From Gammaproteobacteria bacterium (GTDB lineage: Bacteria > Pseudomonadota > Gammaproteobacteria > DRLM01): DNA of 64,000 nucleotides. The notes under the pieces were generated by a model that worked only from the letters and a program-made list of their open reading frames with translations, did not search any database and was not told where the DNA came from. Positions 50,387-51,403 of the stretch are shown here, piece by piece. A program made the translations under genes and the position numbers. Numbering within the stretch: position 1 is the first letter of the stretch; every line of letters begins with the position of its first letter. Where the stretch lies: positions 14,634 to 78,633 of the forward strand of contig JARRQJ010000021.1 in the NCBI GenBank assembly GCA_037381915.1, written 5' to 3'.

Positions 50387-51403
50387 TTATCGCCCGGCCA
50401 GGGCGCTCCGCTCCCGGCCCATCATGTCCATGCCCACGGCGTTCCCATAGCGCAGCATGCTGAGGCGCTCCACCCCGAGGCCGAAGGCGAATCCCGTGAA
50501 CACCTCGTTGTCGACATTGACCTTGGCGAAGACATTGGGATGAATCATGCCGCAGCCCAATATCTCTATCCAACCGGTATGTTTGCACACGCGGCAACCG
50601 CCGCCGCCGCAGATCACACAGGCGATATCGACTTCCGCCGAGGGCTCGGTAAACGGGAAATACGAAGGGCGGAAGCGCACCGCCAGGTCACGCTCGAAAA
50701 AGGCCTGCAGGAACTCGTGCAGCACGCCCTTGAGGTCGGCGAAACTGACGTCGGTGTCGACCATGAAGCCTTCCACCTGATGGAACATGGGCGTGTGGGT
50801 CACATCGGAATCGCAGCGGTAGACGCGCCCGGGCGCGATGATGCGCAACGGCGGCTCGCGTTCCGCCATCACCCGGATCTGCACCGGCGAGGTGTGGGTG
50901 CGCAGCACGCGACCGTCGGGAAAGTAGAAGGTGTCGTGCATGGCCCGCGCCGGATGTTCCGCGGGGATGTTCAGCGCCTCGAAATTGTAATGCTCGGTCT
51001 CGATCTCCGGGCCTTCCACCACTTCGAAACCGACGCCCTCGAACAAGCGTTCGATACGCTCCAGAGTGCGGGTCACCGGATGCATGCCGCCGGGCCCCTG
51101 TCCCCGGCCCGGGAGGGTGACATCAATATGCTGCGCCGCCAGTTTGGCGGAGAGCGCCGCGTTCTCCAATTCCTCGCGACGCCGCTCCAGCATGCCCTGT
51201 ACATCTTCTTTGGCGGTGTTGATCAATTGTCCCGCGGCAGGCCGCTGTTCGGCCGGGAGTTTGCCCAATTGCTTCAACTGCTCGGTGAGTTCACCCTTTT
51301 TCCCCAGGTACTTCACCCGCACCCCGTCGAGCATCTGCAGAGAATCGGCGGCGGCACATTCCTGTTCGGCGAGCTTGACCAGTTCAGCGAGACGTTCTTG
51401 CAT
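50387..51403 (-). CDS. pheS: Phenylalanine-tRNA ligase alpha subunit (aberrant C-terminus)
   Basis: [43 protein letters not shown]. Confidence 0.97.

Follow-up and report, generated by a model that had tools for sequence, protein, structure and literature searches.

The alpha chains of PheRS with solved structures (PDB 4p71 chain C, and also 3pco and 1b70) have the last 19 residues of the subunit; the pheS gene studied here, as assembled, encodes a protein without them. An intact PheS of the same species, P0122, which comes from sister metagenome assemblies, aligns to 4p71 chain C from residue 3 to the last residue (E = 2e-160), and its match to the class II core domain PF01409 spans profile positions 2-246 of 246. 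P0122 shares its Pfam domains and residues 1-320 with the PheS of our window, by which we mean the whole 64,000-nucleotide stretch of DNA analyzed here. The two proteins differ in what follows residue 320: P0122 ends in VNDLRLFFENDLRFLKQFR, whereas the window protein ends in 18 spacer-encoded residues and its PF01409 match stops at profile position 228 of 246. Metagenome assembly provides a second point of comparison. Metagenome-assembled genomes contain small structural errors, in which wrong joins give short duplications or deletions. The lesions described below share with metagenome assembly errors that they are private to one record, that they are missing in read-derived contigs, and that equivalent lesions occur elsewhere in the same assembly.

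The recorded pheS ends in an unrelated 18-codon segment

The assembly that contains the window (G000) consists of 129 contigs and is 94% complete. From the translations around the locus we read the gene order as thrS-infC-rpmI-rplT-pheS-pheT, which is the usual one. The features at the 3' end of pheS are listed here.

50387..51403, minus strand: pheS as assembled, 338 aa plus TAA (ORF translation); residues 1-320 are the normal PheS part and residues 321-338 are spacer read-through
50390..50443, minus strand: odd 18-codon segment; in the intact form, 50443-50442 would be the GA of the inferred TGA, and 50441-50390 would be the first, non-coding part of the spacer
50373..50386, minus strand: 14-nt spacer as assembled, which would be the last part of the native spacer

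The N-terminal domain PF02912 covers residues 21-88 of the window protein, with the profile matched at positions 2-69 of 69 and E = 1.5e-25. The class II core PF01409 is incomplete, with a match that begins at profile position 2 and ends at residue 320, and the conserved C-terminal tail (DLR..FF.ND.RFL..F) is missing. The initial annotation had reported that the canonical PheS C-terminus is replaced by 18 unrelated codons, and translation of the 338-aa ORF confirmed this. It had also stated that the tail could not be recovered in another frame or on the opposite strand. Reading 50300-50520 in all six frames, we likewise did not find the canonical tail, which rules out a frameshift or an inversion. 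Two further details of that annotation were accurate, namely that 17 of the 18 tail codons have G or C at the third position, and that the TAA of pheS ends 14 nt ahead of the pheT ATG at 50372. The tail segment has a G+C content of 74%, compared with 60% for the window. Folding of the RNA of 50373-50443 (minus strand) gave no significant structure (z = 0.44; 130 of 200 shuffled sequences folded at least as well).

We then asked whether a tail or a second gene exists elsewhere in the assembly. pheS gave a single match in G000, so that the second copy considered by the initial annotation is not present in the assembly, and the tail motifs of the relatives gave no match in six frames of all 129 contigs. 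This rules out both an additional pheS and a tail displaced to a different contig.

The canonical tail is kept in relatives and in an intact protein of the same species

In the protein collection, the exact 338-aa window protein (P0121) was found on one contig only, whose 85256 nt equal the length of contig C21 of G000. Its cluster at 90% identity has four other members, all of which are 339 aa long and end in VNDLRLFFENDLRFLKQFR. One of these sequences, P0122 (339 aa), is found on six contigs and is identical to the window PheS over residues 1-320. The pheS lesion is therefore limited to one record, with the exact protein on one contig against six for its intact twin. We conclude that the gene is a pheS and that the truncation belongs to the record only.

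A search of 30 related genomes returned full-length PheS matches in 27, a 62-residue fragment in one and no match in two. The matches ended at query residue 319-320 in all 27 full-length relatives. A tail of the canonical DLR..FF.ND.RFL..F type was present in every one of the 25 tails that could be extracted from the 28 loci, and the closest relatives end in GVNDLRLFFENDLRFLQQFR followed by the stop codon. The three loci that gave no tail were two that missed the motif-3 pattern (L017 and L027) and the 62-residue fragment (L029). Four of the genomes searched belong to the same genus. In three of them PheS is full-length, reaches up to 92% identity to the query and always has the canonical tail, and the fourth (G003) has only the 62-residue fragment. 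Among the homologues listed, query coverage was at most 95% in 120 of 120, and the tail was covered in none of them. A search of metagenome loci with the intact form P0122 found only relatives of at most 75% identity; the canonical tail was present in 79 of these 80 loci, and the 80th is cut by the end of its contig. In a nucleotide alignment with seven relatives, homology extends to …TATGG and resumes at the ribosome-binding region of pheT, and the window is unalignable in between. The flanks of the pheS locus are collinear with the relatives.

These results bear on whether the odd tail is a variant form of PheS with normal activity that is specific to this lineage. The initial annotation had offered a variant PheRS as one of its two readings, and had named a widespread lineage variant with normal activity as an outcome that would refute its replacement reading. 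All 25 extracted tails were canonical. The three full-length PheS proteins of the same genus, the four cluster mates at 90% identity or more, and the lack of coverage of the tail in the 120 listed homologues all argue against a lineage variant, and no support for one was found among the genomes and proteins examined. We regard this explanation as exceedingly improbable.

Contigs of four public runs carry 59 letters that the record lacks

We compared the window over 48800-51000 with assembled contigs of four public runs (X1, X2, X3 and X5), which come from four different studies. This comparison rests on contigs, which do not retain rare variants and could therefore conceal a real variant of low abundance. 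One contig of each of the four runs was found to carry 59 additional letters at a single point in pheS.

50444..50445: deletion junction; contigs of four runs have 59 extra letters between these two positions

Apart from 0-2 differing letters, those contigs depart from the window in exactly two places, one of 57 nt in pheT and one of 59 nt in pheS. The depth at both joints equals the depth of the main contig (8.9, 20.7, 15.5 and 36.5 in the four runs). As an example, in record 24 of X5 the window positions 50326-50444 correspond to record positions 1-119, and window positions 50445-50798 correspond to 179-532. No letters are common to both sides of the 59-letter insert, which means that the junction has no microhomology. 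Of the sampled 31-mers of 49100-50800, a share of at most 0.90 was contained in any run, a shortfall about as large as expected from two junctions and some three single-base differences. An exact search with a 35-nt pattern beside the junction found no stretches in metagenome contigs, a search from which records very near the window genome were possibly excluded.

The contigs of all four runs also contain the DNA of the odd tail, which differs there by 0-1 letters and follows immediately on the 59 extra letters. This DNA adjoins pheT in these contigs and is therefore native pheS-pheT spacer rather than foreign DNA. This result is important for the interpretation favored by the initial annotation, which had proposed that the tail was exchanged for other DNA, precisely and without change of length, through a recombination patch, a chimeric assembly or an engineered edit. 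The similar length of the two tails (18 against 19 codons) and the codons ending in G or C are consistent with such a replacement. However, contigs of four runs have the 54 nt at this very position beside pheT, and the flanking DNA shows no break in collinearity with relatives. We also looked for a donor elsewhere in the assembly, as the initial annotation had suggested, and found only chance matches of at most 22 nt, the best other match being 16 nt long (E = 0.2). With these results, replacement by foreign DNA has almost no probability left. The other reading in that annotation, that the local sequence is unreliable, matches both the read-derived contigs and the intact twin P0122. The same annotation had held that a canonical tail in reads or close relatives would mark the odd tail as an artefact, and this is what the contigs of four runs and P0122 provide.

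What the 59 letters contain can be deduced from P0122 and from arithmetic. Completing the Gly320 codon takes 1 base, the 19 codons of the tail take 57 and the start of the stop codon takes 1, which makes 59 in total, and the window bases that follow the junction are G-A, which would complete TGA. We infer that the 59 letters are the rest of the Gly320 codon, the codons for VNDLRLFFENDLRFLKQFR and the T of TGA. On this basis, intact pheS would have 339 codons and end in TGA, with a spacer of 69 nt behind it at 50441-50373; the extent of this native spacer follows from the read-derived contigs and the comparison with P0122.

pheT carries a private in-frame duplication

The second departure from the read-derived contigs lies in the neighboring gene.

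47934..50372, minus strand: pheT, 812 aa as assembled, of which 19 aa stem from a private in-frame duplication
49284..49397: perfect 57-nt tandem duplication in pheT, copies at 49284-49340 and 49341-49397 (C21:63917, period 57)

The duplicated unit encodes NATRHILLESAYFAPAAMA twice (19 aa per copy). A duplication in pheT about 1 kb from the odd tail had been reported in the initial annotation, and we confirmed that its 57-nt tandem copies are perfect. One contig per run skips these 57 nt, passing from 49283 to 49341, in four of four runs, and the window PheT has a 19-aa insertion relative to its orthologue in the related genome G001. Because the duplication is missing both from the contigs of all four runs and from the G001 orthologue, we class it with the pheS deletion as one kind of artefact. 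The initial annotation had linked the two subunits of PheRS as being altered together, and the link holds in that both lesions are missing from the same contigs.

We also checked reading frames across the window against about 38 open frames of G001 (at least 75% identity and at least 150 aa), some of which are antisense shadows of real genes. Among the 38 frames compared, only pheT (+19 aa) and pheS were anomalous. All other in-frame stops lay near the start of stop-to-stop frames, in their first 33 codons, or belonged to frames that we took to be antisense shadows.

Two other observations concern the contigs of the runs. At window position 49445, which is 48 nt beyond the duplicated pheT segment, the window reads C where G is found in the main contigs of X1, X2 and X3. 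In the three large runs, 44-57 of 85-96 contigs were only 90-95% alike.

Lesions of the same kinds occur elsewhere in the assembly

A scan of the assembly for perfect tandem duplications found two-copy repeats at 14 sites, with periods of 31-88 nt, leaving out a multi-copy 33-nt array on contig C4. We tested six of the 14 (57, 45, 82, 88, 37 and 44 nt), including the one in pheT.

Two of the six are located at a 16S rRNA gene (L043, G000:C30:72500-78841; 16S at 1664-3245). A perfect 45-nt duplication interrupts a conserved stretch of the gene, and at this site the sequence has 46 nt against one position in the Rfam model. The other duplication, of 82 nt, is a second copy of the 3' end of the 16S gene and directly follows the gene. 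In the 23S rRNA gene of the same locus (from 3851), about 104 conserved model positions are missing (about 603-711). This 23S rRNA is also without about 34 positions near 272-305, which may be natural variation.

The remaining three duplications are in coding sequence. The 88-nt duplication on contig C36 (G000:C36:21200-22800, at 716-891) is missing in four of four aligned relatives. The 37-nt duplication on C61 (G000:C61:19800-21300, at 707-780) is missing in three of three aligned relatives, and the same locus has a 66-nt coding deletion (130|131), 577 nt from the duplication and missing in three of three aligned same-genus relatives. On C5 (G000:C5:22900-24400), in a gene that we read as presumably encoding a UvrD/Rep-like helicase, a 44-nt tandem duplication (689-776) is missing in three of three aligned same-genus relatives. 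An 83-nt deletion, also missing in three of three aligned relatives, lies 390 nt away in this locus, just after the conserved ...YVGITR. The duplications on C36, C61 and C5 are not multiples of three, and removing one copy lengthened the open frame from 457 to 515 aa, from 545 to 633 aa and from 264 to 330 aa, respectively.

Lesion sizes were about 37-104 nt, and often a duplication and a deletion were found 0.4-1.1 kb apart; for the pheT/pheS pair the distance is 1.1 kb. Eight further two-copy tandem duplications with periods of 31-75 nt were recorded, some of which may be natural. Their positions in G000 are as follows.

C8:853
C8:66237
C12:1594
C19:44484
C30:5388
C53:4813
C55:14654
C69:362

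The odd tail is very probably a deletion error of the assembly

Taken together, we conclude that the odd PheS tail is very probably a 59-nt deletion error of this assembly and no property of the organism. This conclusion is based on the lesion being private, because it is missing in the contigs of all four runs and in every cluster mate. It is also based on pheS being single-copy, with the tail nowhere else in the assembly and kept in all relatives examined. Finally, the same kinds of lesion recur in the assembly, including in 16S and 23S rRNA and in conserved genes, at sites where such changes could not be functional.

The deletion would have taken the last base of the Gly320 codon, all 19 tail codons and the T of the TGA stop out of the record. 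The frame would then continue into the GC-rich spacer between pheS and pheT, where the first in-frame stop lies 18 codons on. Such spacer read-through explains why the unrelated tail is almost as long as the canonical one and why the 14-nt spacer seems unremarkable. The near-equal length of the two tails would arise because the first in-frame stop of the spacer falls there by chance, and the tail codons end in G or C because the spacer is GC-rich. The 14-nt spacer looks normal, and is only what remains of the real 69-nt spacer.

As for how the lesions formed, short assembly pieces may have been joined imprecisely, such that an overlap that was not collapsed would give a duplication, and a gap that was closed without being filled would give a deletion. 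Such joins would be expected where many related organisms fragment the assembly. The deletion has no microhomology, which does not suit a simple k-mer graph error, and the duplication lengths (31-88 nt) fit no single k-mer size. A point against an assembly artefact is that a public database lists the protein of this record like any other. Errors are sparse in the window and cluster in one operon, which would also be compatible with a biological event confined to this locus.

An alternative is that the 59-nt deletion and the pheT duplication are both real in the sampled population. This could take one of two forms. The deletion could be a fresh loss-of-function allele of pheS in a minor or dying lineage, or it could be tolerated, if PheS can do without its C-terminal element, perhaps with the 19-aa duplication in PheT making up for the loss. 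In favor of a real deletion, the deposited record does carry the lesion, both subunits of one enzyme are altered within 1.1 kb, and the change in pheT is in frame (57 nt). On the other hand, the deletion is missing from otherwise identical contigs of four runs, the exact protein is on a single contig and its intact twin on six, pheS is single-copy, and conservation of the tail extends to all relatives examined. In addition, an account specific to PheRS leaves the lesions in 16S rRNA, 23S rRNA and other conserved genes uncovered. For these reasons we consider a real deletion unlikely. Still less probable, and in our view very unlikely, is that the lesions are real and belong to a living lineage. 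PheRS would in that case work without the near-invariant 19-residue tail of its alpha subunit and with a spacer-encoded substitute, and the 19-residue duplication in the beta subunit would be a possible compensation.

Consequences for the use of this record

An assembly error as the source of the odd tail has consequences for how this genome is used. The assembly is the entry of its species in the genome collection that we searched, and some of its essential genes contain private duplications and deletions of small size. The genes affected are pheS, pheT, 16S and 23S rRNA, the helicase gene on C5 by our own reading, and others. Reads should be consulted before any odd variant in this assembly is interpreted, and the 338-aa PheS as deposited is unfit for use as a natural sequence. 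The PheRS of the organism is almost certainly ordinary and most likely canonical, and the importance of the odd tail is as a warning about this record and not as biology.
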